Assembly (NCBI GenBank): GCA_024137785.1
Contig: JAHRHZ010000267.1
Location: 26,128,256 to 26,192,255, forward strand
Length of the DNA: 64,000 nt
From: Ginglymostoma cirratum
Taxonomy: Eukaryota
Direction: 5' to 3'
The notes beneath the pieces were generated by a model. That model was not told where the DNA came from. It saw only the letters and a list, made by a program, of their open reading frames with translations, and ran no database searches. The position numbers were made by a program, and so were the translations under genes. Each line of letters begins with the position of its first letter. Within the stretch, counting starts at the first letter, position 1. Positions 7,500 to 52,414 of the stretch are shown in pieces.

Positions 7500-7850
7500 T
7501 TACTTCTTCCATTCAGCGCTCGCTTACTTATACACACTCTCTCACTCACACATATATTTACCATTCACTCACTCATTGTCCCTGCACCACTCACACACTC
7601 TCACTCACAACCTCCCTCACTTTCACACGCTGCCTCGCTTTCTCACTGTGTCCCTCGCTCTCACACTCTCCCTCACTCAAACTCTCTTCCTCACTCTCAC
7701 ACTCCCCTTGCCATATACTCTACCTCCTGCAAACTCATTGAGTGATCCTCCGTTCCTCACTGTCAAAATCACTCAGATGTTCTCTCACACATTCATTCAC
7801 TCACTCTCTCTCTTTCTTCCTCTCACTCCATCATGTACTCCTTCTCTTGA
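7500..7850. repeat. CT/CA-rich low-complexity tract; similar tract at 8280-8430 and (GGGAAA)n at ~7175-7198
   Basis: Degenerate (cact)n/(ct)n runs visible directly. Confidence 0.85.
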
Positions 7851-7854
7851 GCAT

Positions 7855-8270
7855 ACAATCATAAGAATCAGGAACAGGAAAGCCATCCAGCCGCCACGCC
7901 TATTCCACCAGTCAATAAAACCATGACTGATCTGACTGTATGCTCAAATCCACATTCCCGCCTATTCCTGAGAACCTTTCACCCCTTTGCTTAACAAAAA
8001 TATACCCACCTCTGCTTTAAAAATATTCAAGCACTCTGCTTCTACCACGTTTTCAGGGAGAGAGTTCCAAAGACTCTGAAAGACAAAAAAATCTTTGTCT
8101 CTGTTTTAGATTTGGGAAACCTGATGTTTAAACATTGACACATTCTGCCATAGGAGGAAAAATCCTCCCCACACTGACTCGACGTAAGACCCATAAGGAT
8201 CTAATATGCTTCAATCAGGTCAACCCTTACTTTACTAAACTCCAGTGTCCAACCTTTCCTCATAAGACAA
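7855..8270 (-). mobile_element. CR1 LINE 3' fragment, old
   Basis: Reverse-complement similarity to the CR1 3' ends elsewhere in the window (cataagaatcaggaacagg, agagagttccaaagactc). Confidence 0.7.
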
Positions 8271-9202
8271 TCTACCCTCACTCTCTTTCACTGACTTCCT
8301 TGTCCTTATACTCACTCATTCACACACACACACACACTCTCACTGATTCACTGAGCCTCACTCACTCATTGTCTCTGACTTGCTGACTCAGACTCACTCA
8401 CTCACTCACTCTTGCGGTCTCTCTCACTCACTTATTACTCCACGACAAACTAATATACTCCACTCCCCCATCTAGACTGCCACCTTGAGAGGGCCAGCAC
8501 CTGCATGAGTAGAGTTCCTCACCTCCCTCAAACTTCCTCCTGATAACAAGTTTCTTTCCCTCACATCCAGGCGGAAACTCAGAGTATCTTTCCCGTGCAC
8601 CTGCAAGCATCCCATCCTTTTCAGTCTATACTCTACCCTACCCCACCCACAGATTTACATTCACCTCCCCCTCACATGCTTAGCATTTTTGGAAATCTCT
8701 CATGTACACCTCAGATTTTGCACACATTGTCAATTAGTCATTTGTGGAAGACACGTTGTTTTGCACTCACTGGGCTGATGTTTCTCAAGTCTGTGTGGAT
8801 CTGACATTGTGCTGAGAGCCAGAAGCAGCACCACTTGAGACAACTGCGACACTGTCAGTGGAATTTTAAGTTGTCCTGCAACTAAATAATTGTCTGTGGC
8901 GCTCACACCCCTTTTATGGACAAGGATCTGTTTCCAAAATGCGACAATTATTTGGTGGGCTGAAAGCTCAGCTGTCTCAGCAGTGCCACTGAGAGCATTA
9001 ATGGGTGGTGGGTTTGATAGTATTGTGGTCTTTGCTACCATGGGCACCTCTGTGGGCCATAGAATGCCCAGTTAGGAGGATCCCCTTCCCAAGACATCAG
9101 GCAGGCTCACAGGGTTCACCAGGTAGTCTCTCTATATGATGAAGTAACCACTAACATCTGCTACAATGACAACTCTAGCAGAAGGAGGCCTTGATTATAT
9201 CA

Positions 9203-9332
9203 GAGATAGTAGGAACTGCCGATGCTGGAGAATCTGAGATAACAAGGTGTAGAGCTGGATGAACACAGCAGGCCCAGCAGCGTCAGAGGAGCAGGAAAGC
9301 TGCCGTTTCAGGTCTGGACCCTTCTTCAGAAA
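9203..9332 (-). mobile_element. Single-arm Penelope-terminus mini-element (130 bp)
   Basis: Same family as above. 11-bp TSD tgattatatca at 9192-9202 and 9333-9343. Degenerate hammerhead CTGAAGA...GAAACGGC on the minus strand. Confidence 0.88.
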
Positions 9333-10059
9333 TGATTATATCAATTGACATTTATTTCTGTTGTTTTTAATGGGAGGTGGGCATCTCAGAATTGGCCAGG
9401 TTTGGTGCTGATCCCATATTGCTCTTGAGGAGATGGTCCACTTTCTTGAACCACTGCAGGTACACACATCATTGTATAAATGAGGGAGTTCTAGGATTCT
9501 GACCTAGTGACAATGAAGAATTGATAACATAACTCTAAATTAGGATGGCTTGTGACTTGGAGGAAACTTTTAGCTGGTTGTGTTACCAAACATCTGCTGC
9601 CCTCATGCTAGGTGTTAGAGGTTTGGAAGGTGCCATGCAAGATTCAGAAACTTGCTGCAATGCATCTTCTGGATGGTACGCACTGTTGTCACTCTGTGTC
9701 AGTGAGTAAGGAAGTGAAAGTTTAGAGTGGTGATTGGGGTGTTTCTTAAGTGGACTGCTTTGTCCTGGATCATGTCATGTTATTGGAGCTGAGCTCACCC
9801 AGGCCAGTAAAGACCATTCCATCACACTCCTGAGTTATGCATTGTCAATGGCGGACAGGCATTAAGCAGTCTGGAGATAACTTATTTGCAACAGAATTTT
9901 CAACTTCTAACCTACTGTTGTCGCCTCTGTATTTTTATGTCTGATCCCAGTTAAGTTTGTGCTCAGTGGCAATCCTAGATATTTGACAATGCTAAGTCTA
10001 AAAGAGATGGTTAGATTCTTCCATTGGAGATGGTTATTTCTGGCACTTGTGTGGTGAAT

Positions 10060-10964: not shown

Positions 10965-12880
10965 TGTCATGTCCCACTCACAAATGCCAGTCGCAGGGCA
11001 ATTCAATTCACTCCACATGATATGAAAGAACCACAGAATGCTGTGGATATAGCCAGGGCTATGGCCACTGACAACATCCTGGCAGCTACACTGAAGACTT
11101 GTGTGACAGAACTACCTGTGTTCGTAGTCAAACTGTTCTGGTGCAGATCCAAAACAGCCACCTACAAAGTAATATGGAAATATGCACAGGTATAACATAC
11201 CTATCCACAAAAGGCATGTCAAATCCAATCCAACCAACTATAGTCACATTCTTCTACTCCCAATTTCAGCGAAGTGGTGGAAAGTGTCATTGACTTGATC
11301 AATTATCTGAGAGAAAATATTTGTAGTGGTATGTGAAAAAGAAAGAAATGAGACAAAGTGAGTTGCTCTTGCAAAAAGCAGCCATAGACACTGATGTACT
11401 TTGTGTTTTCCTACATGTTAGCACATATGTATGTAATATGTGTCACAAAGAGACTGGTTCTTCTTGGGACATATGTCTTGAAGTTTATTAACAACACTAT
11501 TTAAATGACTACAATGCCAAAGATTTGTATACATAGTCTGCACTCTGTGCTTACTGATGTTACTGTACATTTCATACACATAGCTGATTGGCTGAACACA
11601 TTTCACTGTCTCCATGATAGAGAGTGAATGACTGTAGGTACCTTTATATCAGAATGTCAGATGTTGTGCTGTCATGCAGCTATCTTAAAGGTCCAGCCTG
11701 TGTACCAAAGCCATAACATAACACACACAACAGCTGGAATAGCCTTGTTGTATACTGTAGCCATTCAATGATTCCATCTTGATTCAAGCCTAGATTAAAT
11801 TTATTTTCAATGAAGAATGCAGGACAGTATGTCAGAAGAAGCACCAGGCACATCAAACATTGAGCTGCAGACATGGTGAAGGTAGAACACGAGATTACAA
11901 GCATGATCCAGATCACACAGAGTAAGTGGCAGACAGAGCAAAATCATACCAAATGCAACAAATCAGATCCAAAATCTGCAGAGCTGCATATTCCATGATG
12001 ATGGACAATCAAGCCACTAACTGGAGGAGGAGGATCCACAAACATCCCCTTCTTTCTTGATGGGCAGCCCAGCAATCAGTGCCAAAAACCAAGCCAAAGT
12101 ATTGGTAACCATCTTCAGCCAGGGTGCCCTGAGAATGAGTTATTGTGTCCTATTCCTGAAGTTCCCAACATCACAGATGCCTGTCATCAGCCAATTCAAT
12201 TTCACACTCCTTCCCAAATTAAATCTGAGTAACCTAATTCCTGAGAGGCCTCAGCTCAATTCTTTGCTTTCTCAGATGTACTTTGATGACTGCAGTATAT
12301 TCACATACTTACACCAATAATCTGACGTGTATACCCTTCATGGACTGTGATAGGAACATATCATTAATTCATTTTTCAATTTAGCTATTTGTTGCCTTCA
12401 GTACTTATTCCAATTGTTCGAACCACAGAAGGCACTGCAGGTAGCCAGGGCTGTGGCCACTGACAACATCCTGGCAGCAGTAGTGAAGGCTTGTGTGACA
12501 GAACTACCTAAGTTCATCACCAAGCTGTAATGGTACAGATCCAAGCCTACAAGGTAATATGGAAATATGCACAGGTATGTCCTGTCCACAAAAAGCATGT
12601 TAAATCTAATCCAGCCAATTACAGTTCCATTGGTCCATTCTCAATTATCAATGAAGTGATGGAAGGTGTCATTGATGGTGCTTATCAGGTGGCACTTACA
12701 TAGCAATATCTTGTTCACGTGTCATTAGTTTAGATTCTGCAAGGGCTACTCAGCTCTTAAGCCTATTGCAGACTGGGCCAAACACAAAAGAGTCATTTTG
12801 AAGAGGTGAAGTAAGAGTCACTGGCTTTGACATTGGAGCCAGGAGTTGACTAAGCAAGAACATCAGGGGGCCCTGGCAGA
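10965..12880 (+). mobile_element. Non-LTR LINE (CR1/L2-group, a family distinct from the main CR1) fragments, locally duplicated and interrupted
   Basis: Degenerate A(M/V)ATDNIL..LKTC..EL, WKYAQVCPVHKK..KSNPANY and SIINEVMEGVID, seen twice (11030-11293 and 12421-12676). Confidence 0.7.
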
Positions 12881-12924
12881 ATGGAATAAACCAGAAGTCC
12901 AAGAAAATGAATAGAGTAATGTTT

Positions 12925-15900
12925 CATCTATAAACAACATTTTATTTTGTTCATTTTCTCTTATTATACAGTACAGCTCTTAACAAAATCCTAAATCACT
13001 GTATATTGAAAGATTTTTGTTTTAAAACATTCATATTGATTTTTTATTCAAATTTGTGAAACACTACATTAAAAAAATAAGTGATACATTTAAAACAAAC
13101 CAAAGCAAAACTACCACCATTGTCTTCCCCTTTGTTCTGAATATAAACATTACTTTAACGACTTATAAAAATTATATACATCACTAGATATCCCTGTATT
13201 TACATCCCAATGTTTCTTAGGGCACTTGATAGAAAACTAACGTATAATTAAAAACGTTATGAGCCACAAGTTTAGTGTAAACTTTCCATCCAATAGTATA
13301 CAACCCCACACTGAATCTCCCATCGAAGTTAATTGTGCTGCAAGCTTCTTGTGCAACTTTCAAATTAATGTAAATTTAGTTAACTAATTATTTTTTAATT
13401 AAGTGTCTACAATATCAAGCTTTTTTATAGCTTCAAGAGGCTTAGGGTATTTTTAACTCCCTATTCTCTTTCACAGTGTTAGATCATTTTATCCATGCTA
13501 CTTCCTTGATTGACAGCCAGAATGGTCCAAGATGATATGTTGGACCAATAATCACTACTATCAATCTTGTTAACGTTTCACTTAAAATTTTTATGAATCA
13601 CACTCTCCCTACGACTTAACCAAATTGGTAAAATTCACTTTGGAGGATTTCTGAATGTCATTGTTAGTTAAGGACTGATCCAGTTCTCTCCCTTCCTTTC
13701 CTGAAAGTGATAACTCACATTGGGATTTTGGATAATTGTGAACCTATACAATAAAAGCAAAAAGAGGGCTGGGACTATTGGTCATATGCATCATTACCCT
13801 AACAGGCAATTTCTAGAACATATCGCTTGCTTAATTAGAACGTGGCTGAGATTTCTTTTCTTTCTTGCAGTCAAACACGGCAATTACACAGATTGATATT
13901 TGTTGACCCAACATCAAACCTGAGACTTTTCTGAGCTGGATGTTTCAGCACTGTAGCTGGCAAGATCCCCCCGACTCCCCAAATTAAATCTGAGTAACTT
14001 AATTCCTGAGAGGACTCAGCTCAATTCTTTGCATTTTCAGACAGAGACTTTGATGACTGCAGTATATCCATAACTTATACCCATAATCTAAAGTGTATTT
14101 CTTTCATGGACTGTGATAAGAGCATGTCATTAATTACCTTTTCAATTTCCCTATCTGTTGCCTTCAGCACTTATTCAAATGGCTCGAAAATAAAACAAAC
14201 ATGTGATTCCTTCCACTAATATTGCAAAACTTTCTTGCAATAAATTGCTGAGATACTTATGTTTAAAAGGACATCAGCAACATAAAGAAGAGTATCCATT
14301 ATCACTGTTTTAAGTAATACAAAGATTATATGAGGAAATGTATTGAACTTTGTTCATTACTACATTTCTTTAATCAGGATGATGATCAGTTCAATTTCTT
14401 GATAAAACTTCATAGACTCTAGCACTTGTGGAAACTAGTTGAATTGGTGCATTGGGATTTTAAAAAAGCTTCAAATCAGCCTTAATCCAAATCAGTTGAT
14501 CAAAATTATTTCAAATAGATAATCTTAAAAATAACGAGCAGTCAACAGTTGGAGGTATGATGCTTATGCTCACCAGTTACAATGGTTGGGGTAACCAATG
14601 ACAATTGTTGATTATAACATTTTTTCCACCATACATTACATCCAGAATTTTCTAAAAACTATTCTTCTTCACAATGTTGAGTACCAAAAACTAGTCTATA
14701 AGGCAAATTGTTGACATTCACATGGCACTCATCAATGAAATTAACATTTTAGCAATTCATATACATCAGAATAATAACAAGAGTAACAGTATATTTCAAG
14801 CTGGAATTCTTGGCACAAGATACAGAGGTAATGTTTGCTTCGATTTAATTCAGGGGTTAAACTGTGAATTAAGACATTTTTTTCTCAGCTTTAAGCATAA
14901 TTGCTTCACAATAGTGGATCATTGCAGGAAAGCTACATTTAATTTTTTTTAACTAAAAAACGAGCATGGAGTTTTAGGATGCACAAGCAAGTCTGGATGA
15001 TGCATTCTGCTGTTCAAACCTCTTGACTGAATGCACGATTGAAATGGGAAGCATTCCTAGTTCAGTTTATGCAGTTATTCTGGATTTTACTATGTTAGGC
15101 ATTACTGACATTGCAGGATAACATGAATTGTTTCTCTTGAATTTGTTAGTTGCATCTGATTTTGCCTACCTTCTCAAAAGCTTTAAAGCATTGTTTTGTC
15201 CAATACAGGGGGAAAAGTGATTGTTAATGATGTCACAATAAGAATGTTTAACGCATATATACTAAATTTATTAATTCAGTAAGTAAATTCAGCATCCTGA
15301 GCTCCTTGTGATGGAAGTGCAGGCCAAACACACAGCTACTGCTCTGTAGTGCTGATACTCAAAATGATGCTTCCATCAATGGAGGTTGATTTTGGAGGGA
15401 CAGCAGGATGGCTGACCAAACTCCCTGGTTCATATGTTCATATCAAATTTCACCAGGTGCTAACTTATTTAAAATAAACAAGTTAACCTTCTGTTGACTA
15501 GTATGGAGAAGAATAAGATCAAAATGTTGTTTGTATAATTACATTGCTTTCAGTCACTTTGAAGCTATCATGCTGCACTAGGTGCTATCTTGTTCTTTAA
15601 TTACAAAATGATTTAAGTACTGGAGTTAGTTAATTAAAATCCAAGTTTATTAAATGTAGAATGAATATCCTTGTATTGCTGATGATTAATTTATTTCCTT
15701 AACATCCTAATGATTTCTAAACAATCTTTCAGGCATAGAAGGTTTCTTTTCCAGGAAGTAAAAAATAAATAATACAAATTTTTTTTTTTGTAAATTAGAA
15801 GCTTTGCGTAATTGGTTTTCAGTTCACCAACTGTTTTTCTCCCAACAATATATCCTCTCAAATATGAAACTATTTCTCTTCTGTTTATGTGTTCGTATAT

Positions 15901-19796: not shown

Positions 19797-20104
19797 CATC
19801 ACAGAACCCCATAGTGTGGAAACAGGCTGTTCGGCCCAACAAATCCACACTGACCCTCCCACTCAGACCCATCCCCCTAAATCTGCATTTTCCAAAGTTA
19901 ATGCATCTAACCTTGAAAAGTAGCATGGTCAATCCATCTAACCTGCATATTTTTGGACTGTGGCAGGAAACCAGAACAGCTGGCAAAACCAATGCAGACA
20001 TGGGGAGAACATGCAAACTCTACACAGACAGTTGACTAAGGCTGGAATTGAACCCAGGTCCTTGGCATTGTGAGGTAGCAGTGCTAACCACTCAGCCACC
20101 ATGC
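19797..20104 (-). mobile_element. tRNA-derived SINE (HE1-like shark SINE)
   Basis: Minus strand tggctgagtggttagcact (A box), gggttcaattcc (B box), core tgtagagtttgcatgttctcccc and a CR1-like tail. Confidence 0.88.
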
Positions 20105-20469: not shown

Positions 20470-20978
20470 AGTCATAGATTCATACAGTACAGAAACTGAC
20501 CCTTCAATCCAACTTGCCTGTGCCAACCAGAAATCCCAGTCTGACCTAATCGCATTTGCCAGCATTTGGCCCATATCCCTCTAAATCCTTCCTATTCACA
20601 TACCCATCCAGATGCCTTTTAAATATTGTTATTGTACAAGCCTCCACCATTTCCTCTGACAGCTTGTCCCACACATGCTTCACCCTCTCCATGGAAAATG
20701 TTACTCCTCAGATCCTTCTTTAAATCTTTCCCCTTGCACCTTAAACCTATGTCCGCTACTTTTGGACTTTCCCACCTAGGAAAAAGACCTTGGCTATTCA
20801 CCCTATCCATGCCTTTCATGATTTTATAAACCTCTATAAGGTCATCCCTCAGCCTCTGATGCTCCACGCGAAAAAAGCCCCAACCTATTCTGCCTCTCTC
20901 TATGACTCAAATCTTCAGTCTTGGCAACATCCTTGTAAATATTTTTTGCACCCTTTCAAGTTTAACAACATCCTTCTG
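20470..20978 (-). mobile_element. Younger CR1 3' fragment nested in an older minus-strand CR1 (~20255-21990)
   Basis: ORF RLRDDLIEVYKIMKGMDRVNSQGLFPR, same subfamily as 1-1090. The older flanks include KSCLINLIEHF. Confidence 0.85.
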
Positions 20979-26800: not shown

Positions 26801-28765
26801 AGTTACGTGAAAATTAAGGAAAAAATACTTCTATTTATGTACCAGCTAATGAGATTGAAATTGTGCAAAGTATTTCATATTAAATGAATGACTTGCGCAG
26901 TGAATACATTGATCCAGTGAAAATACCATTCCACATACAGCCATGGCTAGATCTGGTTTTAATGATGCTGATTGAATGTGGAATGTTTTGAACTGGAAAC
27001 TAAGATATAATGCTAATTATCTCTGAATTATATCATATGACCTTACTAGCAATCTGTATGGTCAAAGACCTCTAAGATGATAATTGTTCATTGAATGATG
27101 TAATTTTAAAACATTCTTACACCAAAAAAAAGCCTAGTCACTCCAATAATCAACCCATCCTCCAACTTGTTGTGCACAAGTTCTCTAAATGTTTTTACAT
27201 GTGATAAATTAGAGGTGTGTATGGGTTTCACAGCTGTAACATAGAGGCAACACAGCTTGTAATATTGATATCTAAGTAATCTGTAGTGTTAATGTAATCC
27301 AAGGTGAATGAAGGGTAACTCCAGTTCCTTCCTTCCAGTGCCAGGTCTTCCACTTCCATATACACAAATTCCGATTGCAGCTTTAACTCCATCTTCCCGC
27401 CTGTCTTCTGTAATTACTTCATCGATCAGAAACCTTCCTAACTCAGCATTGAAAATAACAAGTATCTTAATCTCTACTACTCCCTGAGGAATAAGTCCAA
27501 AAATTAACAAACCCCTGATAGAATAAATTCACAGAATCATTGAATTGTTACAGTGCAGGAGGCCAGTCGGCCCATCATGTCTGGTCTTCAAATGAGCATC
27601 ATTATCTAGTGCCAACTTCCTGCTTCTTCCCCAAACACTTGCACACTATTTCTACCCAAATAGTCATCCAGTGCCTTCTTGCATGTCTCAATTGAACTCA
27701 CCCCATCATTTCCTCTTTACTTCTGTCTTAAAAGGGAGACCCCTTATTTTGAAACAGCATCCCCGGTACTAGATTCTCTGAGCATTGGCATGTCAAACCT
27801 TTTGGAATCATCAATGTTTCAATAAGATCACCTCATCGGCTATACTGCCACATTACTGTCTATGACACGTTGACATCTATGCAATAGAGATAAACTGATT
27901 CATATCCTAGTAGGTATTGAACTTACTCCCAGCTATAGATCTGCCAAGTGGGTGGACATTGGAGGTTAGCATGGAACAAGTCAGAATTTGTTGTTGAAAT
28001 CAAATCAGTCTTTAATAATTCATCTATATGCTATCAAAGCATGACTAAGGCAGCAATTAAGCCATCAGAGATAAGCTTTTCACGGGGACAAGTGCTGCAG
28101 CAGTTTGTGTGGGCCAGCATTGCCTAACACTTAACTGTTATCAGTTTAAAAAAGCAAACACAACTAGGTAAGTGGGATCTGAATGAGGGAAAAATAAACC
28201 TGTTTTTCTCTGTTTGTTAGGTTCACAATTAACTTGCACAGCTTTCCAAACTAATATGTGTGCTAGATATGGACACTTCAAAGTAATTCTCAGTTTTCAA
28301 GCAAAGGTGAATATTAGCATTTTCATTTCAACAATGCATGCATTTGATCAAGTCACCATGTACCCAGCAGTTTAGAATAATTACAATAGGTACTCATGAA
28401 GTGAAAGTTCCAAATAATAATTTATCCTCTGTTTACTAATGGAGAACCACATTCGAAACAGGTGGTTTCCAAATAACCTCAGCCGCTGATGCTGTGGAAT
28501 CCACCCTGCATTTGTTAAGTGAACTGTACAACTGGTTGAAAATCACAGTGCATGACTTTCACTTTCTGTCTACTAAAATATCACAGAATTCCTACAGTGT
28601 GGAAACAGGCCATTCAGCCCAACAAGTCCACACTGTCTTTCTGAATAGCATCGCACCCAGACTCACCCCTTACCCTATCCCTGTAACCCTGCTTTTCCCA
28701 TGGCCAATCCACCTAACCTGCACATCTTAGGACTGTGGGAGGAAAGCCACACAGACATGAGGAGA

Positions 28766-28980
28766 CAATAGGTACTGCAGATGCTGGAGAATCCGAGATA
28801 GCAAAGTGTGGAGCTGGATGAACACAGCAGGCCAAGCAGCATCATAGGAGCAGGAAGGCTGATGTTTCAGGCCTAGACCCTTCATCAGAAAAAGACTTTT
28901 CTGATGAAGGGTCCAGGCCCGAAACGTCAAGCTTTCCTGCTCGGCCTGCTGTGTTCATCTAGCTCCACACCTTGTTATCT
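28766..28980. mobile_element. Palindromic Penelope-terminus mini-element (two inverted arms) inserted in a SINE
   Basis: The arms are reverse complements around aaaagactttt. TSD cagac(a/c)tgaggaga at 28752-28765 and 28981-28994. The arms match the 3' end of the 58722-61221 element. Confidence 0.9.
28901..28928 (+). ncRNA. Minimal hammerhead ribozyme core
   Basis: CTGATGA-a-gggt(ccag)gccc-GAAACGTC. Intact core, stem II, palindromic ACGT and GUC triplet; stem I is weak (ttt/aag). Confidence 0.6.
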
Positions 28981-31927
28981 CAGACCTGAGGAGAATGTGC
29001 AAACTCCACCCAGACAGTTGCCTGAGGCTGGAATTGAACTTGGGTCCATGGTGCTATGAGACAGCAGTACTAACTGCTGAGCCACGGTGCTGCCCTGATA
29101 TATTTAATGACTGTGAATATTATATTTCTGGTCTGTGCGACTGGGCTCAGTGCTCTGCATCATGTGGCATGAGAAAACAGTATTTAGCATTGGCAAAGGA
29201 AGTATTCCCATTTGAGGCTGGTAGTGTAGGGCATTGCCTGCAAAAATGACCATTTTGTGGAGGGTGGACCATCTTAAAAAGCATTAGTGCTGCTTCAGTT
29301 ACCTCATTGCATCTCGCAGAACTACAAACTACAATAAGTTATTTGAAGTTGTCTTTATCTATTAATCACTGAACTAGTCCATAATTCTGTCAGAAAGGTC
29401 CTGCTTTATGATATATATGCTTACCTCTTACAGCTGTTAAAATTGACAGGAGGCCAATGGCCATGGTTAGATACTTCTATCCATAAAAGGTGATGGACAC
29501 TGAGCAAACAAATCCACTTCAGATGAGATACTTTCAAAAAGCACAGATACTGATGGCTGAAGAGCCAATTCTTGACAGGCAGGTTTTGTCACAAGTGCTG
29601 AAAAGCTAATAATTTTCGTTGTGAGTTGGTGTTTTCAGCAATACCACCTGTTGCCAAGTTGCTGTAGTAACTGGTTAACATGGTGCATGCCAGCTCACAA
29701 GAGATGTAATCATTTTTCTCTGGGGTCAACCAGTGACTTCGAGGAGCAATAATCAATATCCAGTGTCTTCGCATTGCTTGAAAACATCTTGATGCAAAGT
29801 TATTAGTGTTCTCTTGGTTATCTGGCTCCAGTGACCTCACTACACGAAAAGTACTATTTTCACTATATTCACTTCTGTGTGTATTTGGCCAATCTTGAAA
29901 GCCTGCAACGTGACTGAGACAATGAAACTATCTCAGTTTGATAACTGCTAACAAATTTAGGAGCTCTGCTTTTGAGGGGACTGCTGCATTTGTGAGTTTG
30001 TCCTGACAGGAAAATTATTTTCATTCTCTCTACATCTCCCCACCCTTTCTCACCATTGTTAACACCACACAAGGATGGGAAAATTCTGCTCTGCTCTGAA
30101 ATGAACAGGCAGTTTGATTTAGGTCTTATTCATCAATAATCATCAAGATAATAGTGCTCAAAAATCCCTTTTCCAAAATTACCACCACATCTATAAAGGG
30201 CAAAGCAGCAGAGAGATGTAAATGTAAACAGAACTGAGTTACCTGGCATCATGGCTGATTGCCAAGGATTGGGGTTGCAGGTTGGCCCCTTCTCTACTAG
30301 AAATTATAGGCTGTCCTTCCTTTCATTTCTAACCAATGACTTTGCTGCATTAGTAGAAGGTGCAGCTCTTATTAAATTCAATGACAACTTATCAGCTCTA
30401 AAAAGCCTGGTTATGAGACAATGATTATTTAATTATAGGGACTAGAAGGCCAAGTTTCACTGAGTTAAATTAGAAATGATATTCTCTTGTTGCTACAGCA
30501 CTGGTATTGAATTGGCTCATTTCTCTCCACAGCATAGAAGTGAATATAGTGAAAATAATACACAATTTCCTGATCTACTTGGGGAAATTGAAACTCATGA
30601 TAGTACTAGTAAAAAGATGATTGTTGCAGACAGCCAAAGGATCTATTCAAAGAAATTAGTGCAGCACTGCATATTTGCCCACCCACAACTAACCCAAACC
30701 CCCACCCCAGCCCCCATCACTGTAGCCTCCTACAGTTTCTCAACAATTCCAAAACTTTTGCCTCCAGTACTCCATCTTGAACTTTATTTCAGCTGTTTTT
30801 GATGCCTGTGCGAAGAAGACTCTCCTGACATCCTAAAGTTATCTTCTATAGCTTGAACCAGTACATCTTTGTACTGTTTCTAAAACTTATTTTAAAATAA
30901 TGATTATAGAGCACTCTCCAAGGAGAGCAACTGCATGCACCTCATCCAGGAACCTTGGCATCCAGCATTTGTCGGTTTCACTGCATCATCATGGCACATC
31001 TCTAACACACTTCCAGTATGTTTTAATGTTGGACTTTGGAGCACACCAGCATTCTCATTATAATGCTGTTGCAAGAACACTTTGCATGCAGGGACAGGTA
31101 CCCAATCAATGGATTGGATCAGGCTGCATCTTAGGGCTCCTTACTCATTCACTTTGAGCCAACTTAGATGCTCAAGTTATCTCTGTCCTTGCCTTGCCAT
31201 TTTACAGTGTGTCCCCTCAGCCAGAGCTAACGGGCTCACAATACCTCTATCTTGTGTTGCCTTTTAGCGCAAACACAAAACTAGGCAGCTTGTTATGGTT
31301 GCCAGCAGTCATCAGTTAACAGGATGTACATGTTGCTCTGTGGCACTGTTATGTCAATCTGAAACCAGCACCCTATACCAGCCATGTATGGATCAAATGC
31401 ACCGTCTGTGCTTCAAGCAAATAGCCATGTATCAAAATCGAATGAGGGCAGTCTTCAGTTACATTTGGGGAGACACATCTCAGGAAGGGGTTCTTGGTAC
31501 AGTAATTCGATAACAGGTTCCAGTATCATTCTAGGGGCTTAGGCTGGTCACAGACAAGATTCTCTGCTTGGTGATGAGAAGACAAGTATTGTGATTCCCA
31601 CCATAGTCTTTCCAGGACTCTCTCTGACATACTGTGGGTTGTTTTCTCCTAGAATGAGAGAAAGGGAGAGACTGAGTAAGATGAAAGTGGATGGCACAGC
31701 TGTTGCTGCTGCAGTTTGGGGAAAGGTCATGAGGTGTCTCAAATGAATAACAGGGCAGCACAGAGGTCACGCAGGATTCGTAGCGTGGGGAGTTAGAATT
31801 GGAGAGAGCAAGTGAGGTAAAATGTTGCATGCAACAGTGAGAGCGGTTGAGTATGATCCTTTGAAGGGAGGTGGATGCAGTAGCAGTGATGGAGTGAGTG
31901 TGAGCTTGCAGAGAGAAAATGGTGGTA

Positions 31928-32164: not shown

Positions 32165-34364
32165 ATCCAGGCCCTATGTCACAAATCATACAGGACAGCT
32201 CCACAGTGACAGCACTTGACTAGGTGTACAATAGCCTTTTAAGCATGGTGCTAGTGCCAGGAATCCCAAGGAAGTCCCAGCAGTGTCAAGTACTTATACC
32301 TATGGTGAGAGGGAGAATTGAGCTAGCATCAGATAATTTGTGGTATACTAGTGGTGTGGTAGGTAGTTATGAGGTGAGTTTGGGATGATCACATGAGAAA
32401 ACATGCTAGGTCTCGTGGAGTAAAATCCTCCATGAAACGTTACAAAAATTACACAATCAATTTCTGATAAAATTCAGCCTAATGTAACTAATACTTCCTT
32501 TATCGACTGGATAATACAACATTCTATTAGTTCTGTTGATTGCTGTTCTTCATCTGAAAGACATATGTGGTGTTGAATCTGTAAGACTCCCTTGTCTCCT
32601 TCAACTCAATTTTCTAACAGTATCAGCTCCATTTATGGAATATGCATATCATTGTTTTTGTTTCCCACATATATTACTTTACATTTATCTGCAATAAATC
32701 TCATTCCTCACTGATGAGCCCACTTTCGTACTTGGTCTGATTCATACTGTAATTTCTTATCTGTGTCTCATTTCCTCTGCCCGATCCAGTTTGGTGTGAT
32801 TTGCAATTTGACCCTGCACATTAATTTTCTGAATCTAGATTGTTAATGTAAATTCATATGGTAATGATTCCCATAATGAGCCCCAAGGTATCCCATTGTC
32901 AAGCGAACCTCGCTCCCCCAACCCCTAACTCCCCCACCAACCCTTGTACAATTCATCAGATGAACACTTGTTGCTTTCTGCCCCGTGTCAGTTTCTTATT
33001 CCTTCCATGGTTTACTCTGAATTCCTGAAAGATTGAGTTTGGTTAGTAACCTATTACTTAAGTAGAACTTATTGGAAGTCTTTTGGAAGTGTATGTGCCC
33101 CATGTCCCAGTATTTGCTGTAGATCACTTTAGTTGTCACTCACCAAATTTGTTGAAGGTGACAGGATCTTGCCTTTCAGAATGAATTCTGAATATTTTTA
33201 GCTAGGTTAATCCTCTATGGATAATCATCAGGTTTGGAATGCTTTAAGACTAGTGTGTCTGCAGTTGGCTTCCTGGCTGCTCTACCCTGTCTGAAGCAGG
33301 CAGAAGGTTTGGCTCGATTGAGATTTGGAAAAATTGAATTTTTGATATAGCATTGTCAAATACTAAGAGATGCATATCTCTGAACTTTTAAATGTGAAAA
33401 ACTTTGAAAGTGTGTGGGAATATTAAATATTTAGGATTAACTGTAGTCAATCCTCGAGGATATATTTCTCACTCATAATGAGATGAATTATAAGATTTTG
33501 CATTCTTACACTGGATAATGTAGGACAGATTTTGAATTAAAATTTTTTAGTTTTTAAGTAAAATCATTTGAAAGGTTTTATTAAAAAGCAAACTTTCACA
33601 AAAAAAAGCATGATCTCTATTGTTGTGTCTAAGTTATTAAACACAACTGCTCGTTTTAGTCATGTTCCCAGGCGGTTTTCTATATGCTATCTACAGACTA
33701 GTGTTGCCTAGGTAAAATGTAAAGAACACACTCAACCATGAATATGAAACTAATCTGAACCGGTGTTGGATTAGCTAGTTCAACTTCACTATAGTTTTAA
33801 CAGAAAGATAGAACAAAGCCACACTGTGTTATGGACCCTCCATAATTATCATCTTTGTCACGAGTACAATGAACACCCTCTACCATTCCTGTCCTGAATC
33901 CAAAAAGAGTGCTGTACAAAATTTGGAAACTGATCAGTTTAATGCTTATAGAATGTAGTATAAAGCAATAACCATCTCTCTCACACAAGTTAGTGTTCTT
34001 GTTCAAACAATGACAATTACGGATGACCTCAATCTCACTATGTAAATTCACAGTAAGAGATCATGAGTGTGGACTGAACCTTCAACTTAACACTTCTTGG
34101 CAGTAATATATTTTACTATCAGCTGTAAAAGATCAGGTGAGTTTCATTTTTAATATCTATTGGCTTAATTATAAACGATACATAATCTAAACATGGTTTT
34201 AGTTTTTTTGGTATCTATTTCTCCACTCAAATATGGAAATATTTTTATTTTTGAAACATTTTATATATAGCACAACTAATATTAACTTTAATGTTCTCTG
34301 TGCATGGGTAGCGAGGGTTTTATCAAATTAGTTTGGCATTGTGGTGAAAGACTGCAGGCAAAAC

Positions 34365-34462
34365 ATTTCTGAAGAAGGGTCTAGGCCCGAAACGTCCGCC
34401 TTCCTGCTCCTCTGATGCTGCTTAGCCTGCTGTGTTCATCCAGCTCTACACCTTATTATCTC
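34365..34462 (+). mobile_element. Single-arm Penelope-terminus mini-element with hammerhead core (34369-34396)
   Basis: CTGAAGA-a-gggt(ctag)gccc-GAAACGTC...ccttattatctc, nearly identical to 61128-61221. No TSD seen. Confidence 0.82.
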
Positions 34463-35639: not shown

Positions 35640-37262
35640 GGGAAACAAATGCCATCTGACTGAACGTGACCTGCGAACAACTATACTTCCTGCACAAATA
35701 CCTCAGTAAAATCAGCAAGACAGATTACCAAAAAAAATGAAACCAGAATGATGCAACACACTCTGATTTTATGGACTCCCCAAGGTACACAAACCAGGAG
35801 TCCCCTGAGACGCATTTGTCTCACTACCAGATACACCAACACATAGACTTGCCAAAGAACTACAACAGAAATTGAAATACTTAGTTGACAACACTGCCCA
35901 CTCCATCCACTCATCCCAAGAATTCCTCAACATCATCAAGGACACCAGGATAGAAGAGGACGAGATGAAGATATCCTTCGACGTAACAACACTATTTACA
36001 TCCATAAACGTCGACCTAGCCAATTGCCACACTACTGGACGAATCAAGTAGGCAGGCACCCCAGGACACCAACAAAATCAATAAGGACACCACCATGAAA
36101 CTACTAAATCTGTGACTCACAACCCACTTCACCTTCAACAACAGCATATACAAACCAATCAATGGAACACCAATGGGATCCCCAGTATCAGAACTGATTG
36201 CAGAAGCAATAATGCAAAGGTTAGAATGAACAGCACTCCCCACTATACAACCCAAACTTTGGGTCCGATATGTAGATGACACCTTTGTGATTATTAAATG
36301 CACAAAACCAGAAGAAACCCACTGACACATAAACAACACCCTTACCGGGATAAAATTCACGAAAGAAGGAGAGAACAGTAACCAACTACCCTTCCTGGAC
36401 ACAATGGTAGAACACAAAAAAAATGGGGGGCTCCAGACTAGCGTATCTAGAAAGACCACACATATGGACCAGATACTCAATTACACGAGCAACCACCCTA
36501 GCGCCCACAAACGGAACTACATCAGGACACTATTTGAATGAGCCACAACACATTACATCAACCAAGAACTACACAGAGCAGAACAGGAGCACCTATACAG
36601 AGCCTTCAAAAGGAATAGATACCCGAAAAGCACAATCTGCTGTTGCCTCCAAGACAGACCACGACAGGAAGACACAACATGACCAGACTCAATAATCACC
36701 CTACCATACATCAAGGACATATCAGAGATGACCACAAGACCACTCAGACCCCTAGGTATCAGGGGACCCCACAAACCAATAACCACTCTACGACACCTAC
36801 TGACAAACGTAAAGGATCCCATACCCAAAACCAGCAAAACTTGGATAATACACAAAATACCATGCAACGACTGTGAGAAACACTACCCAGGCCAAATTGG
36901 AAGAAAACTAACAATACGGATATAGGAACACCAATTAGCCACCAAGGGACATGACCAATTCTCATTTGTCTCACTACACACGGACAATGAGGGACACGGA
37001 TTTGACTGGGACAACACATCCATAATCACATAAGCCAAACAGAAACACACCAGGGAATTCCTGGAGGCCTGGTATTTCATAATACCAACGACCCCAGCAA
37101 ACCAAGGCATATAAATAACAAGCGGGACAGAACACCAATGCTTTATCGGAGGTGCACTGACGATGTTACCTAGCAGGGTGACGAAATGTTTGCAACCAAG
37201 CTCACCGGCTCAGTGAACATGTCTACAAGCTCATCCACAACCCGAGCTACAAATCTTCTCGA
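35640..37262 (+). mobile_element. Penelope-like retroelement (Poseidon-like), decayed, RT + GIY-YIG
   Basis: Interrupted frames give FYGLPKVHKPGVP, SFDVTTLFTSI, NGTPMGSPVS, WVRYVDDTFVIIK, QLPFLDTMVE and GIY-YIG-like IIHKIPCNDCEKHYPGQIGRKL. The 3' end carries a hammerhead motif. The 5' boundary is approximate. Confidence 0.88.
37151..37197 (+). ncRNA. Minimal type I hammerhead ribozyme motif (partly decayed) at the Poseidon-like 3' end
   Basis: ggtgca-CTGACGA-t-gttacc(tagcag)ggtgac-GAAA-tgtt-tgcaacc. Stem I (tgca/tgca), core and stem II all pair. GAAATGTT looks like a decayed GAAACGTC. Confidence 0.7.
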
Positions 37263-38315
37263 AAACATTAGAAAGCTATCTTGTTGCGCACATTTCTCAT
37301 TCCATCAACGCTGGTGTATCCATTGTCCTGCACCCATTCTGCTCACTAATGGTAGCTACTGCAATTCGCTGGCAGGTCGCTCTGCCGTTGCAGTCAGAGC
37401 CGTTCTCTATGATAATATCTTTGCTTCACCATGACATTCAAATATCTCCTTCCCTTTCTTGGACATTTATTTTTAATACAAAGTGCTTTTGAAACATTGG
37501 CCAGAATCTTGAGGATACCACCCAAGGGGTTCTTGGTTGTTTACAGAGACTCAGGCATGTCCGCTTATTGTCTCTTACTAGGAAGATCTACCATGTCATA
37601 CAGCAGTCTGGAACGTTACAGGACAGTGGTGAGTTTTTCCCAGCAACAAGGACACCAAGACTGAAGGCCACATCCACTGAGAATTTCTAGCCAGTTGGAG
37701 CCTGGCAATGTTATTGAACAGCAGTGTCACTGGGGAGGCAGTGGCTCTTGCCGGTAAAACACCCACCCAAGGCCTACAAGTTCAGACAACAGGTTAGCAA
37801 TGACGTAAGGAAGTCACAGAATGGGGGTCGGGGAGAGGAGTCATTGGCAGTAAGGGCAGATTATGGTTCTCAGTGGGGCTTCCACCTTTCCTCTTGCCAG
37901 ATCTCCTGATCAGCCAGTGGGTGCCTTTGATCGAGGCACACTCTGGAAGCCCACAGGCAATCCTGCACAGTTTGTTTGTTGTACTCCATGTATACCAAAC
38001 CCTCATTAGCTCTGACTTAATACCAGCAGGGTGGAGTGAGGGTCTTAAGTGGGCATTAATCAGCTGTTTAAAGGCTGCAGTTTGTAGCAGAGCAGGAAGG
38101 CTGACCACAGTTTTAATGTGTGGAGATGCATCCTCACCTACCACCTCCTCGTCTTATTGAATGTCCTGTCCCACCATCAAATTAGTCACCAGAAGGGCAG
38201 AAGATTCCAGTGATCATTTTGGAAATGAAAAGTGTAAAACAATACAAGTTGTTGAAATAGTAATGTTACTATTTTAATGGTGAAATTATATTGAAGCAAT
38301 CATGTTCATTGCTGA

Positions 38316-38572
38316 GATAACAAGCATGGGGCTGGATGAACACAGCAGGTCAAGCAGCATCATAGGAGCAGGAAAACTTGACGTTTCNNNNNNNNNNCAT
38401 AGGAGCAGGAAAACTTGACGTTTCGGGCCTAAACCCTTCATCAGAAAAAATCGAAGGGTTTAGGCCTGAAACGTCAAGTTTTCCTGCTCCTATGATGCTG
38501 CTTGACCTGCTGTGTTCATCCAGCCCCATGCTTGTTATCTCGGATTCTCCAGCATCTGCAGTACCTTTTATC
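38316..38572. mobile_element. Palindromic Penelope-terminus mini-element
   Basis: Inverted arms around aaaaaatc. TSD tcatgttcat(t/a)gctga at 38300-38315 and 38573-38588. Contains a 10-N gap. Confidence 0.9.
38417..38444 (-). ncRNA. Minimal hammerhead ribozyme core, same sense as the klf5l pre-mRNA
   Basis: Minus strand reads CTGATGA-a-gggt(ttag)gccc-GAAACGTC. Confidence 0.6.
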
Positions 38573-40326
38573 TCATGTTCATAGCTGATTGCATTGAAAC
38601 TGTTTGCCACGTAAGCACAAATTCGGCATCTCTCAAAAGATTTCCTAGATTTTGATTTTCCTTTTACATTGATACTATTAACATACGCAAAAGCAATCAC
38701 TTCTTATTTGAGGATTAGGGAATTTATCCAAAGCTCTTATCAATTCCATTTTGTAATAGGAGATACGTGTTCAGTATGGGTTGTATAACTGACCCACCAT
38801 GAATTCTCTTCCTACCTATTCCTCTTACCCCCTCCAAGCTTTACCAGGCAACTGCAGCAGTTGCCCAATAACAGCAAAGTACTTCTGATTTTTTAAAGTT
38901 GAGAATCTAGCTTTCCACCAGTTGTTCAATCAAGATTCCATTAAATTGGAATGGTTGAATGGCAGCCCTTGTCTTGCACCTCCACAAATCATGTACTTAT
39001 GAAGCAAAACAAATAGAATGTGATCATTGATGCAAATAACAGTACAATAGCATAATAGAAACTGATGACTGTAATGCTAAACAATTTTCTAATTGCAGCA
39101 GGATCTGTTTGAACTCTGCATTCTTGCATATGTTGATTCTTTTGGGCAGGACCAAATCTAAGGGCAAAAGTATTGCAAAAAGAACAGGATTCAGCTTTTG
39201 TTTCTTGGGCCGTGCTTTATCAATGTGATTAAGAGCTGTTCACTGATTTCGAGAGAGGTTCTAGGCTTCGTTTGGTGCCCACAAAGTCGTTAGCAACTTC
39301 CCATTCACCTGGGAATTCTTTAGGTTAATTAGAGCTTTTAGCACCTTTTGATAGGTTTCCATAGATGTTGACTCTAACTGATAACACTAACTGCTCCGTG
39401 CAGATAGATGTAAAAATTTGTAGAAGAAAATATATGGAATTTGATCGTTACCTGTACAATTACTAGTTCCATAAGCAGTAAATTCATTCATTATTTAAAA
39501 GCAACATTAATATTTATGCGTCCAGAATGCCATTAATAATAATTCTATTTTTCCTTGAGTTATCACAAAAATGAGAAGTGCATTCTCAATTAAATGTGAT
39601 CAACCTTTTGCTCTGAATTTAACCTGCTAATATTGTGAAACAAAATTCAAAGCAAGGATGCAATATAATTTTTTTTCCAAACTTGTGCATGTACATTATC
39701 TTTAAAATGCTAAGTTTGCAACTTAAACTTTATGGCTATGGGCCAATAATAATGACAGCCAAAAATCCATGGAAGCTAAATTCCAGAGATCAAAATAATA
39801 TTCTGTGTTACAATGTACAGCTTCTATTTCATTAAAAATGGATATTATACCTGAAATTAATACCAGTCATAAAAATCTTTCAATGTATCAAATGTGTTTT
39901 GGCTTAATGTGCTATTTTCAGTATAATGCATATAACAGATTGTCTTAGCATCTGCATGTGCATGAAACCAATTTTGTACACTGCACATGTAGTACTACAG
40001 TGACTAGTCTTGCAGTGAGAGAATATATAAGCCATTGTTTATTGCTGGAAATAAAGCAACTCCTGTAAAAATATCGCCATGAAATGCATCTACATTTATG
40101 CACCCACCTCACAGAAACCCTATAAAAATGTAATAACACAGAAGAAATTAATTTGGTCCATCATGTCTGTGCTAGTCGACAAAGAGGTACTAAACCTAAT
40201 CCAAGATTCCTGCACTCAGTCTGCAACTCTATCAGAACTGGTTCATCAATTGGAAACCCACATGATTTTTAAGTGGGCTGAGAGTTTCTGTCTCCACCAC
40301 CCTTAGGGTGGCACAGTGGTTAGCAC

Positions 40327-40451
40327 ACACGCACGTTCCGAGGAAGGGTCACCAGACCTGAAATGTTAATGCGAATGATTTTCTCTTCACAGATGCTGCC
40401 AGACCTGTTGAGCTTTTCCAGCAACTTCTGGTTTTTGCTGTTATTGTTGAG
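40327..40451 (+). mobile_element. Second-family Penelope-terminus mini-element inserted in a SINE head
   Basis: ccgagga-agggtc(acca)gacct-gaaatgtt...agatgctgccagacctgttgagcttttccagcaacttc. Perfect 14-bp TSD acagtggttagcac at 40313-40326 and 40452-40465. Confidence 0.75.
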
Positions 40452-40599
40452 ACAGTGGTTAGCACTACTATCTCACAGCGCCAGGGACACACGTTCTTCA
40501 GAGGGTTGCTTTGGACTTGAAGACTTGAATGGCCTACTTCCACAGTTTAGGGATTCTATGATTCTTTCAGACAGTGACCTCTGCCATTCTTTCGGTGAA

Positions 40600-45502: not shown

Positions 45503-46560
45503 AGTCATAGAGTCATACAGCGTAGAAACAGACCCTTTGGTCCAACCAGTCCATGCCGAACATAATCCCAAACTAAACTAGTTCCGCCTGCCTGCTCCAG
45601 GCCCATATTTCTCCAAACTTTTCCTATTCATGTATCCATCCAAATATCTTTTAAACACTGTAATTGGACTCACATCCACCACTTCATCAGGAAGTTCACT
45701 CCACATGTGAACCACCCTCTGTATATAAAAATTGCCTCTTACGTCTTTTTTAAATCTCTCTCCTCTCACCTTAAAATGTGTCCCCTATTCTTGAAATCCC
45801 CCATCTTGGAGAAAGACAACTACTGTCAATTCTATCTATATCTCTCATTATTTTATAAAGTTCCATCAAGTCACCTCTTAATCTCCTACGCTCCAGTGAA
45901 AGATGTCTGAGCCTATCCAGCCTTTCCCTATGACTCAAACCCTCCATACCTGGCAACATCCTGGTAAATCTCTTCTGAACCCTCTCCAGCTTGATAATAT
46001 CCTCCCTATAACTGGGCGACCACAACTGGATATAGTATTCCAAAAGAGGCCTCACCAATGTCCATAAATCCTATCTTTTATAATCACCTCCAACAAGTTA
46101 CCTACAACTGAAGTCAGACTCACAGGTCTACAGTTCCCTGGTTTCTCCTTATAACCTTTCTTAAACAAAGATACAACATTAGCCACTTTCCAGTCATCAG
46201 GCATCTCACCCTTAGTTATAGAAGATGCAAATAATTCTGCAAGTGGTCTTGTAATTTCCTCCATTACTTCCCACAACATACTGCGATACATTTGATTACA
46301 TTTGATTAGGTCCCGAAGATGTATCTATCTTTATATTCTCTAAGACCTCCAGAACTTCCTCTTCTGTAATGTGCACTGTTAAAACATCAAAGTTTATTTC
46401 TCTGCATTCTCTAGACTCCATTTCTTTCTCCACAGTAAAAATTGAGGAAAATATTAATTTCGTATCTCTTCCATATCCTGGGGTTCAACACAAAGATGAC
46501 CTCTTTGATCTTTAAGAGGCCCAACCGTCTCTCCAGTTACCCTAAATACTAACTCTAGAT
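45503..46560 (-). mobile_element. CR1 LINE with an internal deletion of the RT core
   Basis: DWKVANVVSLFKKG.KEKPGNCRPVSLTSVVGNLLE joins directly to LVRPLLEYYIQLWSP...GDLMELYKIMR; ctatgact tail. Confidence 0.9.
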
Positions 46561-49500: not shown

Positions 49501-52238
49501 AGCCATAGTTTGGATTCAGGAATTTTTTAAATAGGTAAGTTGAAAAGATCATACTCAAGTGCTCCAGCCAATCCCCATGGCTGTTCATACACTCTGTGCA
49601 ACTCAATGTAACCTCATGCCTCCAGTCACTCACAATAGCTCCTCATTTTCTCTTATGCCAATTCATGCCCCTTTCCATGTCCAATAAGTACATAACTAAT
49701 GATCCACTTAATATGAATGGCAAATGTGGAACTTCTGAGAAAGAAGCACCGTGTAAAGAATGTCCTTGTAAAGTAAAAGCTGAGAGATGGTACCATTCAA
49801 TTATACAGTCTCCTGGCTTCACAAAAGTGCAGGGCTCAAAAGAAATAACTTGGAATCCACTGACATACATCAATGGGGAAGCTTCTGCTTGCTGGTCATG
49901 CCCAGAATATGGGAAGTTGCTAAAGTGTATCCACCCTGCAGCACTTGGTCTATGAGAAAAATTGAATGGAGCGATGAATCCTGAGGAGAAGTCCTACTCG
50001 CTGATTCCAAAACTGATGTTACCATTCGGTGTCACCACAGAGGATCGTTATGATCCATTTTCAAGCAGCAAGCTGGCAGGCGCAGTAGTGGTGACATCTG
50101 TTTTGCATTCTGAACAAGTTATGTTTCAGGAAAGAGTGATGGTGCTCCTCAAGCAGACTTCAGTTTGAAGAGTACATTGTTTGAGCACAGTTTTATGATT
50201 GCTTCGAGATAGTTGTTGCACAATGTAGATAGGAATAAAAGGATAACATGATGAGTAACTCGCATTGTCAACTCTGGTCATCTTGCAGTGTTCTGAAATC
50301 CTGGTAGTGAGTGAGTTGGCATCCAGCGCTAAGACCACCTCCATCTATACATCATGACTCTGGCCACTTAACCAGGGGTTGGTCTCTGCTCACTCCAATC
50401 TCCTGCAGGTTGAACTCCCTATGAGAACTTCATTGTGAAAATCCAATGAACAGTACAGAAGCTATTCTTGTGTGAATGGATAAATTAAAATGCTATAGAA
50501 ACACTGTAATCAGAATTAATATAGATTTTAAAATGAAAGAGAGAAGCGAGAACTTATGCTTTCCCCAATTTCAAGTCTAGTGCAGAAGAATGGTGTATGG
50601 AAATGAAACTTTTCATATGCTTTTGTTGGTTGCGCTTGTGTTCCACACCGATATCTATATTTCAGTTTCAGCAAATCAGCTCTTCAGAAAACTGGAGTGC
50701 AACTTTTTGTCATAGCAATTGATAAATACTGTGGCATAAACAAAGATGTGTTTACAGCATACATTAGATCCAGTAAATGTCAGGCCATTGTGTACTGTTG
50801 TCACAGTGACAGTCCTGTGTGCATCATGCATTTCTGTCTCAATGATGATCTTGTTCAAATCATATACTTTTGTCTCCCTTCTGTAGACAATGCATACTCT
50901 CCCTATGTGGAAAATCTGTCAACTTCCTCTCCTCATCACCCTAACCCCAACATGAGCAGTAATTTGTAATTCTGTGATGTGCTTTACATCAATCCACAAA
51001 GACATGCCCCTCCCCTGTTTCATTCAATGCGTAATGTGAAGGAACTTTAATAGCGTTCAACTAGCTTCCACAAAAATGGTGGGCTGAATCTTGGTTTTAA
51101 TTGGCTAATTGCGCGTTGATTTACATTTTTTGGAAGATTTGCATTTGAGACCTCGTGAGACTTCTTCCCAAACTTTCCTCATCAACATACTATAAGTGGA
51201 GAGGAGACAATGCAGTTTCTAGGAACTCTGAAGAAACATGTCAGATGACAATATCAACAAATGGTAGGTGTATGTGGTTGGAGTCGAATGAATAAGCCCT
51301 GACTGGCTGGACACTAGGCATCAACATGGAAGTGGTTTGAAGTAGACGGCAAGCTGAAATTGGCTTTGACTGCCATGTTGAGAGTTCTCGATGTCTCGCT
51401 TGTTTGACACGTTTGGTCAGATATGAACCTGAATTTTAATGAAGTAAGTTGAGCCAAGGTGTTTAACAAACTTTAAATTCCTTTAACAGGCTGTGTGTTG
51501 CTGCTTGCCTCGCTGTTTGGCAACTGCATAAAAGGTGCAACGAGATGTTTCTGATGTTGATAGGCCTTGCTGGAATTTTCACTTGATTCTGCCACGAACC
51601 TTGCCACAGCCCACATTGCTGAGACCTCTAAGATTCCATCCGAAGTAATCTTTTTAGAAATCTATACAGTTCAACATGAAAACTTGCTTGCTGGTGATAA
51701 ATCTGATGAGTGGTCACCTTATTTTTTTTTTATTTGGGATTCCGTGGCTGAGTATCTTCTACATAATTGCTAGAACTCTGCTGTAAGCTAGGTTTATTTT
51801 GTCCACGACAACTATTGAGCTTTGTTCAGAGTCCTAGAGGAATTGAATCATATTTCTTCAAAATTGAAGACCCTCAGTAAAAAAGGGGAAATGGAAAGAA
51901 TGCAAGAAAAAGAATCAAGTTTTGAGGCCTTCTAATTCCTCAAATTCTTTAATTTGAAAACTCGCCAGAATCAAGGACCTGGGAGACGCATTGTTAAAAC
52001 CATTACACTGACAATGAATTCAGTTATGAAGGTGTTCCATCTTTAACAGATTGTACAAGCAAATGCTAAGAATTGCCAGAACACCAAAGTATGTAATAGT
52101 TCAACTGTAGTTGCTTATATTTGTAGAAGTTGAACACAGTATAATGCTCAGTCCTGTAATGTGCTAGACTTGATCCATTTCTATGGTCACATCCTTAAAC
52201 AGTGAATTGTTCAATACGATCTATTACATCAACTGTAT

Positions 52239-52357: not shown

Positions 52358-52414
52358 CATCAACTATATGATTGTTTTAATGGCTTAAAGCAATATCCAA
52401 GGAAAACAGCATAC

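Follow-up and report, generated by a model that had tools for sequence, protein, structure and literature searches.

A palindromic Penelope-like pseudo-LTR stump with a single tail in a KLF5-like intron of Ginglymostoma cirratum

The focal insert and its host site

The window analysed here is a 64,000-nucleotide stretch of the Ginglymostoma cirratum genome (GenBank assembly GCA_024137785.1, contig JAHRHZ010000267.1, positions 26,128,256 to 26,192,255, forward strand); all coordinates below are positions in this window. It contains a KLF5-like gene on the minus strand (15990–54706; exon 2 ends at 53827, exon 3 spans 52474–52415 and exon 4 runs from 16168), for which KLF5 is the best single-stretch match in the PDB (E 1.9e-37). 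The intron between exons 3 and 4 (intron 3) carries a palindromic insert of 215 nt (28766–28980, excluding the duplicated target), which is almost certainly a dead single insertion made by the reverse transcriptase (RT)–endonuclease (EN) of a Neptune-type Penelope-like element (PLE).

The insert consists of two inverted pseudo-long terminal repeat (pLTR) ends. The minus-strand arm (28796–28893) is a 5′-truncated pLTR end with 90% identity over 92 nt to the 3′ end of a longer copy found elsewhere in the window, and the plus-strand arm (28897–28981) is a pLTR end that lacks the tail and has lost 14 nt near 28942/28943. The 5′ ends of both arms are joined by GAC (28894–28896), within a centre reading AAAAA-GAC-TTTT (28889–28900) that is nearly perfectly symmetric around 28895. 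A 34-nt tail, lying between an inner and an outer end site, is confined to the minus arm (28795–28762) and is shared with 5259–5292, 9203–9236 and 38541–38574. The arms differ by 8 substitutions in the computed alignment, or 7 under an alternative gap placement, in 83–84 nt (~8%), plus a 1-nt indel and the 14-nt deletion. A preliminary description, made from the sequence alone, had reported a 215-bp insert with fold-back arms and a 34-nt tail on one of them, and both features are present as described.

A 14-bp target site duplication (TSD) with one mismatch flanks the insert (28752–28765 and 28981–28994, plus strand), the final 4 nt of the left copy (GAGA) also matching the end of the element's tail; a comparable repeat at equal spacing was obtained for 1 of 3000 random position pairs. 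The insertion broke a short interspersed element (SINE; 28694–29085), which we take, in name and in minus-strand orientation, to be an HE1-like tRNA SINE. The name HE1 was not found in PMC5499810. With the insert and one copy of the duplication deleted, the SINE is restored and can be aligned to two further copies in the window (near 19.9–20.1 kb and 57.2–57.4 kb). The single TSD pair, the 8% divergence of the arms and this rebuilt empty site argue that the insert arose in one event, which bears out the earlier view of a Penelope-like insertion with inverted pLTRs and a tail. SINEs in the window are preceded by 3′ ends of long interspersed elements (LINEs), presumably HER1/CR1-like (28591–28635, 19808–19852, 45514–45558, 20719–20866 and 45805–46033), and the focal insert lies inside such a LINE–SINE cluster.

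Hammerhead motifs and predicted folding

Hammerhead cores were recognised by a scan for the motif plus helix II. The plus arm contains an intact minimal core (CUGAUGA, helix II, GAAAC, GUC) at 28901–28928, plus strand, reading CTGATGA-A-GGGTCCAGGCCC-GAAAC-GTC, with a helix I of only 3 bp by inspection. The minus arm contains a decayed minimal type I core (28888–28861, minus strand), in which two CpG-type changes (GCCC>GCCT and GTC>ATC) leave an AUC triplet and a G-U pair at the base of helix II. The preliminary description had identified both cores, the one as intact and the other as decayed. Helix III is absent from both, and no Rfam hammerhead family was found in the 64-kb window at E ≤ 1. 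Two other Rfam matches, mir-1303 on the palindrome at 38 kb (39.5 bits vs a gathering score of 107) and a snoRNA (E 0.9), were rejected.

The whole insert is predicted to fold into a hairpin of −151.2 kcal/mol (z −17.9; none of 200 shuffles as good), consistent with the long hairpin that the preliminary description had expected. Both cores would be buried in it: core bases of the folded plus-strand insert are unpaired with a probability of ≤0.004, and helix II has a pair probability of about 1e-15 or less on both strands. The host pre-mRNA has the decayed core in sense. Because the cores are buried in the hairpin and the host-transcribed strand bears the decayed core, a ribozyme role of the focal insert is unlikely; the hammerheads would be passengers, unable to fold within the palindrome, in a predicted long intronic duplex. 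The proposal that a transcript of either strand would contain a ribozyme motif and form a long hairpin thus holds for the sequence motif and not for a working ribozyme. Minimal PLE hammerheads are reported as inactive as monomers (PMC4209133). A consensus fold of the four tailed arms gave 20 pairs and 0 compensatory changes, and shows no conserved tail structure.

Related insertions in the window

The family to which the insert belongs is represented by six insertions within 64 kb: three inverted pairs, two solo arms and one 2.5-kb copy. The first sister inverted insert (5243–5818) has a perfect 17-bp TSD, a tail on the minus arm and a centre hidden behind 400 N, so that no hammerhead is visible in 5260–5801. 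The second (38300–38588) has a 16-bp TSD with one mismatch, a tail on the plus arm and an asymmetric centre; ~28 nt of 38316–38572 are duplicated by a 10-N gap. The two gaps, 5339–5738 and 38388–38397, are the only ones in the window and both fall inside these palindromes. In the 38-kb insert the whole core is present in the minus arm only and the plus arm begins at GAAGGG; across 38315–38574 the tail-less arm has 11–12 nt of 5′ sequence (including CTGAT) that is absent from the tailed arm. Visible differences between arms number 0/46 at 5 kb and 0/73 and 1/42 at 38 kb, and the inserts diverge from one another by 8–13%.

All three inverted insertions have one tail and one TSD pair (14, 17 and 16 bp). 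Tail/tail or no-tail/no-tail inserts were not seen (0/3, too few to test). The one-sided tail noted earlier at the two sister loci does therefore recur, with the qualification that the 5-kb centre is obscured by N and that the 38-kb locus has a whole core in its minus arm only.

Of the solo arms, identified by alignment, the tailed one (9192–9343, minus strand) has an 11-bp TSD and its tail ends at 9203; the other (34364–34462, plus strand) is tail-less, and a TSD was sought there and none found. The inner end site is used at 34462 and, in the 2.5-kb copy, at 61222 (TSD 13 bp). Tailed and tail-less end sites both finish in TATCT(C). Neither tandem head-to-tail copies nor a full-length copy were found among main-family matches in the window. 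Pattern scans for further copies gave 1 match in viral contigs, 32 in metagenome contigs and 0 in genome contigs; all 33 were rejected as chance, only 18–21 nt being matched.

The long copy and family assignment

The 2.5-kb copy (58709–61234, plus strand) is a 5′-truncated, frameshifted PLE, probably of Neptune type, comprising RT, thumb, a CX4CX2C motif, a mostly deleted EN and a tail-less pLTR within a 13-bp TSD. Its first frame has 76% identity to a Chiloscyllium punctatum protein and is matched by 62 proteins, most with RVT_1, PF28514 and PF26215; in tblastn, RT and thumb are spread over four frames. The Cys motif reads CNRKMCYTC (near 60641), and such a motif precedes EN in 38 of the 62 homologues, of which 39 have a GIY-YIG-like motif. 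The alignment ends near 60744, only the last ~15 residues following, consistent with deletion of most of the EN. An Atlas search with the long copy led to DUF8422 clusters. A direct Pfam scan of pieces of the copy gave no significant family, a PDB search with such pieces found nothing, and a peptide from the arm matched none of the 62 homologues significantly (best E 0.33).

Assignment to Neptune is suggested by the CX2-5CxxC motif between RT and EN, a motif that Nematis also has (PMC8557442). Three features expected of an EN-bearing (EN+) PLE are found together here: a linked PLE-type RT, a pLTR with a minimal hammerhead and one-tailed inverted pLTRs within one TSD (3/3). At ~61107 the long copy has what resembles a splice acceptor, a polypyrimidine tract with ttcag, placed 23 nt upstream of its hammerhead; in Drosophila virilis, too, introns end near the hammerhead.

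Origin of the inverted arrangement

Priming from both ends of the cut target is the origin we somewhat favour, the number of inserts being tiny. A protein, probably a dimer, would make a staggered double cut about 14 bp apart, and both target 3′ ends would serve as primers for reverse transcription of pLTR RNA, starting at the outer site from one end and at the inner site, 34 nt away, from the other, aided by 1–4 nt of microhomology. The preferred stopping point of both cDNAs would lie 4–7 nt upstream of the core, and their joining at this point, followed by fill-in, would give a head-to-head palindrome with one tailed arm and one TSD. The anatomy, TSDs, end sites and family link come from the present analysis, the two-strand cleavage and extension and the two start sites from the literature: purified PLE protein, predicted to be a dimer, cuts and extends both strands with no strand difference, and two start sites bound the tail (PMC11167929). 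The same paper describes later integration steps as awaiting validation. Priming of both strands in one event (using either a single RNA, with strand displacement, or two RNAs) and the joining step are what we infer.

Several observations point this way. Each of the three inverted insertions is bounded by a single TSD pair. The tail-less end would be a priming site in its own right, because independent one-armed copies end there, and neither arm of the 38-kb insert would have been copied from the other, since each holds sequence that the other lacks. At the eight TSD-bounded 3′ junctions, overlaps counted by eye are 1, 4, 2 and 1 nt at inner sites and 4, 1, 2 and 0 nt at outer sites (P = 0.003–0.017 against a random-join null; the 34-kb copy, with no TSD, was left out). 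The focal arms differ at alignment columns 34 and 38, where an extra A and a T are shared with the 38-kb arms and the other states with the 34-kb and 61-kb copies, a weak hint in the sequences that two templates may have been used. Five of the six visible 5′ ends of short arms fall 4–7 nt upstream of the first C of the core, and the sixth, that of the 38-kb plus arm, lies 5 nt inside it. This common end could be the 5′ end of the RNA, or an RT stop at a C-rich tract located upstream in the long copy. Hammerhead cleavage was rejected as its source, the ends lying upstream of the core and not after GUC.

A narrower version, which we put forward only tentatively, holds that a single pLTR RNA serves both cut ends, the dimer priming at two TTATCTC-like motifs separated by 34 nt. 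The RT that follows behind would displace the first cDNA, synthesis of both would end in run-off at a fixed 5′ terminus of the RNA immediately upstream of the hammerhead, and the centre would be closed by end-joining.

Several points weigh against priming from both ends. Just two centres are readable, and the focal one is nested and symmetric, as expected if one arm had been copied from the other by fold-back. The asymmetry at 38 kb could derive from a later central deletion, a scaffold gap adjoining it. Palindrome centres are deletion-prone. The divergence of the focal arms (7–8 in 83–84) matches that of the TSD (1/14), and the arms may therefore have been identical at birth; parallel changes occur at other columns too (19 and 25). 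The identical visible arms at the other loci would fit one template or assembly collapse, and two independent RNAs should also yield tail/tail and no-tail/no-tail inserts, of which the three insertions include none. Microhomology is likewise expected from repair joins, initiation without homology is reported in PMC11167929, and the in vitro work there used a Poseidon element, not Neptune.

Under fold-back, one arm should lie within the other and newly made arms should be identical; if both target ends prime, each outer end should be a site where RT starts, and the arms need not be nested. Arm nesting is the discriminating test, because identical arms and a single tail would also be expected from two priming events on one RNA.

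Fold-back synthesis, the origin suggested in the preliminary description, is possible but less likely. One target end would prime at the tail, and the cDNA would fold near the hammerhead and copy itself, the second arm ending 34 nt short, perhaps by endonuclease resolution; self-priming of this kind is proposed in the Discussion of PMC3846280, and the tail is ascribed to endonuclease resolution in PMC8557442. This published proposal fits the near-perfect symmetry of the focal centre, with a 3–4-nt loop (DNA hairpin −11.3 kcal/mol), as well as the presence of exactly one tailed arm in every inverted insert and the identity of visible arms at the 5-kb (0/46) and 38-kb loci (0/73, 1/42), and by our reasoning its polarity would yield a head-to-head arrangement. 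However, it leaves unexplained why the short arm stops at the end site of solo copies; in PAc, the Poseidon element of Anolis carolinensis, RT starts in vitro at the equivalent site. The non-nested arms at 38315–38574 also run counter to it, unless sequence was deleted there later. Furthermore, the long copy has no natural inverted seed upstream of the core (CCCCCATTC), and two of the focal arm differences match the states of other copies.

It is improbable that a pre-formed palindromic, non-autonomous element, either resembling a miniature inverted-repeat transposable element (MITE) or existing as a hairpin RNA, moved as a unit. Two of the three inserts are alike in size and the anatomy is repeated, but the 28.9-kb and 38.4-kb inserts have different centres, solo arms flanked by TSDs occur, the ends are asymmetric, TSDs vary in sequence and in length (11–17 bp), and the inserts are 8–13% apart although the 38-kb arms are near-identical. 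The symmetric ends and fixed TSD of a MITE or foldback DNA transposon are not seen, and the partner is an RT element.

A chance pair of back-to-back insertions, considered in the preliminary description, is very improbable: the arms are ~8% apart with indels, and two columns match different copies, but one TSD pair surrounds the whole with no central TSD, the empty SINE site is rebuilt cleanly and the layout is seen three times in 64 kb. An assembly artefact (read fold-back or a collapsed repeat), also raised there, is extremely improbable on internal evidence, since in spite of N gaps in both sister loci, one with the duplicated 28 nt, the focal locus is gap-free, with one, slightly diverged TSD pair, a rebuilt empty site and arms 8% apart (7–8 substitutions, a 1-nt indel and a 14-nt deletion).

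Comparison with known systems

In L1 twin priming both target strands prime on the RNA, producing an inversion inside one TSD, and the inverted segments do not overlap. Here, in contrast, the same 100 nt would be copied twice from fixed start sites. A literature search linking twin priming with inverted Penelope insertions returned no PLE-mechanism paper by title or start of abstract, most subscription papers and the PLE papers of 2001–2006 being outside its scope.

EN+ PLE insertions typically have inverted pLTRs, optionally with a 30–40-bp tail at one end, enclosed by a single TSD (PMC3846280, PMC8557442). In a tandem unit the tail would be expected to equal the sequence at the start of the open reading frame. 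The inserts described here share the head-to-head inverted pLTRs, the tail on one end, the single TSD and strong 5′ truncation, and the focal tail, at 34 nt, is as long as the 34-bp repeat of D. virilis (PMC2377424). They differ in that both focal arms are ~100-nt stumps without an open reading frame, 5′ ends are concentrated immediately upstream of the hammerhead, and TSDs are 11–17 bp rather than the 8–10 bp of rotifer PLE examples.

Like PAc (PMC11167929), the present family has two end sites bounding the tail, a hammerhead about 90–125 nt upstream, and an ATG lying within the CTGATGA core, from which a frame stays open through the tail (here in the minus arm). Unlike PAc, copies with CTGAAGA lack the ATG, the elements are of probable Neptune type, and their targets are not notably AT-rich and show 1–4-nt microhomology. 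The main text of the PAc paper contains no model for inverted inserts; its Supplementary figure 2 may show some.

Dual hammerhead motifs on opposite strands, 100–700 bp apart, have already been reported (PMC4209133). The focal cores resemble other metazoan PLE minimal hammerheads in having a type I core without helix III, an extra base before helix II and a palindromic CG at 15.2/16.2. They differ in their 2–3-bp helix I and in pairing with each other's antisense copy, because they are just 12 nt apart. Non-LTR retrozymes (PMC7229834; bioRxiv 10.64898/2026.07.22.740005) are likewise short, non-coding, hammerhead-bearing and pLTR-related, but are tandem head-to-tail repeats, whereas the focal insert is one head-to-head pair with a minimal core.

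Other elements in the window

A second, broken PLE at about 35700–37270 (plus strand) is ~30% identical to Neptune-type RTs, retains a GIY-YIG remnant and has its own minimal hammerhead at 37157. No Cys linker was seen and no TSD found for this element, which may be of Poseidon type. A solo pLTR stump of another PLE family (40313–40465) lies in a SINE head with a perfect 14-bp TSD; it has ~8 unexplained nt at the 5′ junction and, like most short arms of the main family, begins slightly upstream (a few nt) of its core, here the variant CCGAGGA. A tailed copy of that family is located near exon 3 of the KLF5-like gene (52227–52369), with a possible 12-bp TSD; its homology begins ~2 nt ahead of where GUU cleavage is predicted. 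In the first sister insert, the plus arm at 5.7 kb may likewise start at the cleavage site, only 2 nt being visible before the gap. Both of these could possibly have cleavage-defined 5′ ends.

The tails of two PLE families (28795–28762 and the sister tails for the main one) have CAGCATCTGCAGT in common. CAGCATCTGCAGT and the TATCT(C) end sites are candidate protein-recognition motifs. The window also contains a low-complexity tract rich in CT/CA (7519–8432) and unexplained local direct duplications (11028–12544 and 12210–14188; 1.4–1.8 kb apart, 82–93% identity).

Significance

The focal insert is an ordinary decayed PLE stump of published type, and it matters mainly for what it can show about the formation of inverted repeats and second strands by PLEs. 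For the host, each intronic insert of this type would add a ~100-bp RNA duplex to the pre-mRNA, which may be a substrate for editing or small-RNA production. If priming occurs twice on one RNA, a single cause would explain why the tail is one-sided and the pLTR inverted, and why the centre varies and the stump size is fixed; the stumps would be complete records of PLE integration, and shark genomes a dense natural read-out of the mechanism. The family is dense (six insertions in 64 kb), with long TSDs and two clear end sites, making nesting, centres and tail combinations countable across the genome; such counts could therefore separate fold-back from priming at both target ends.

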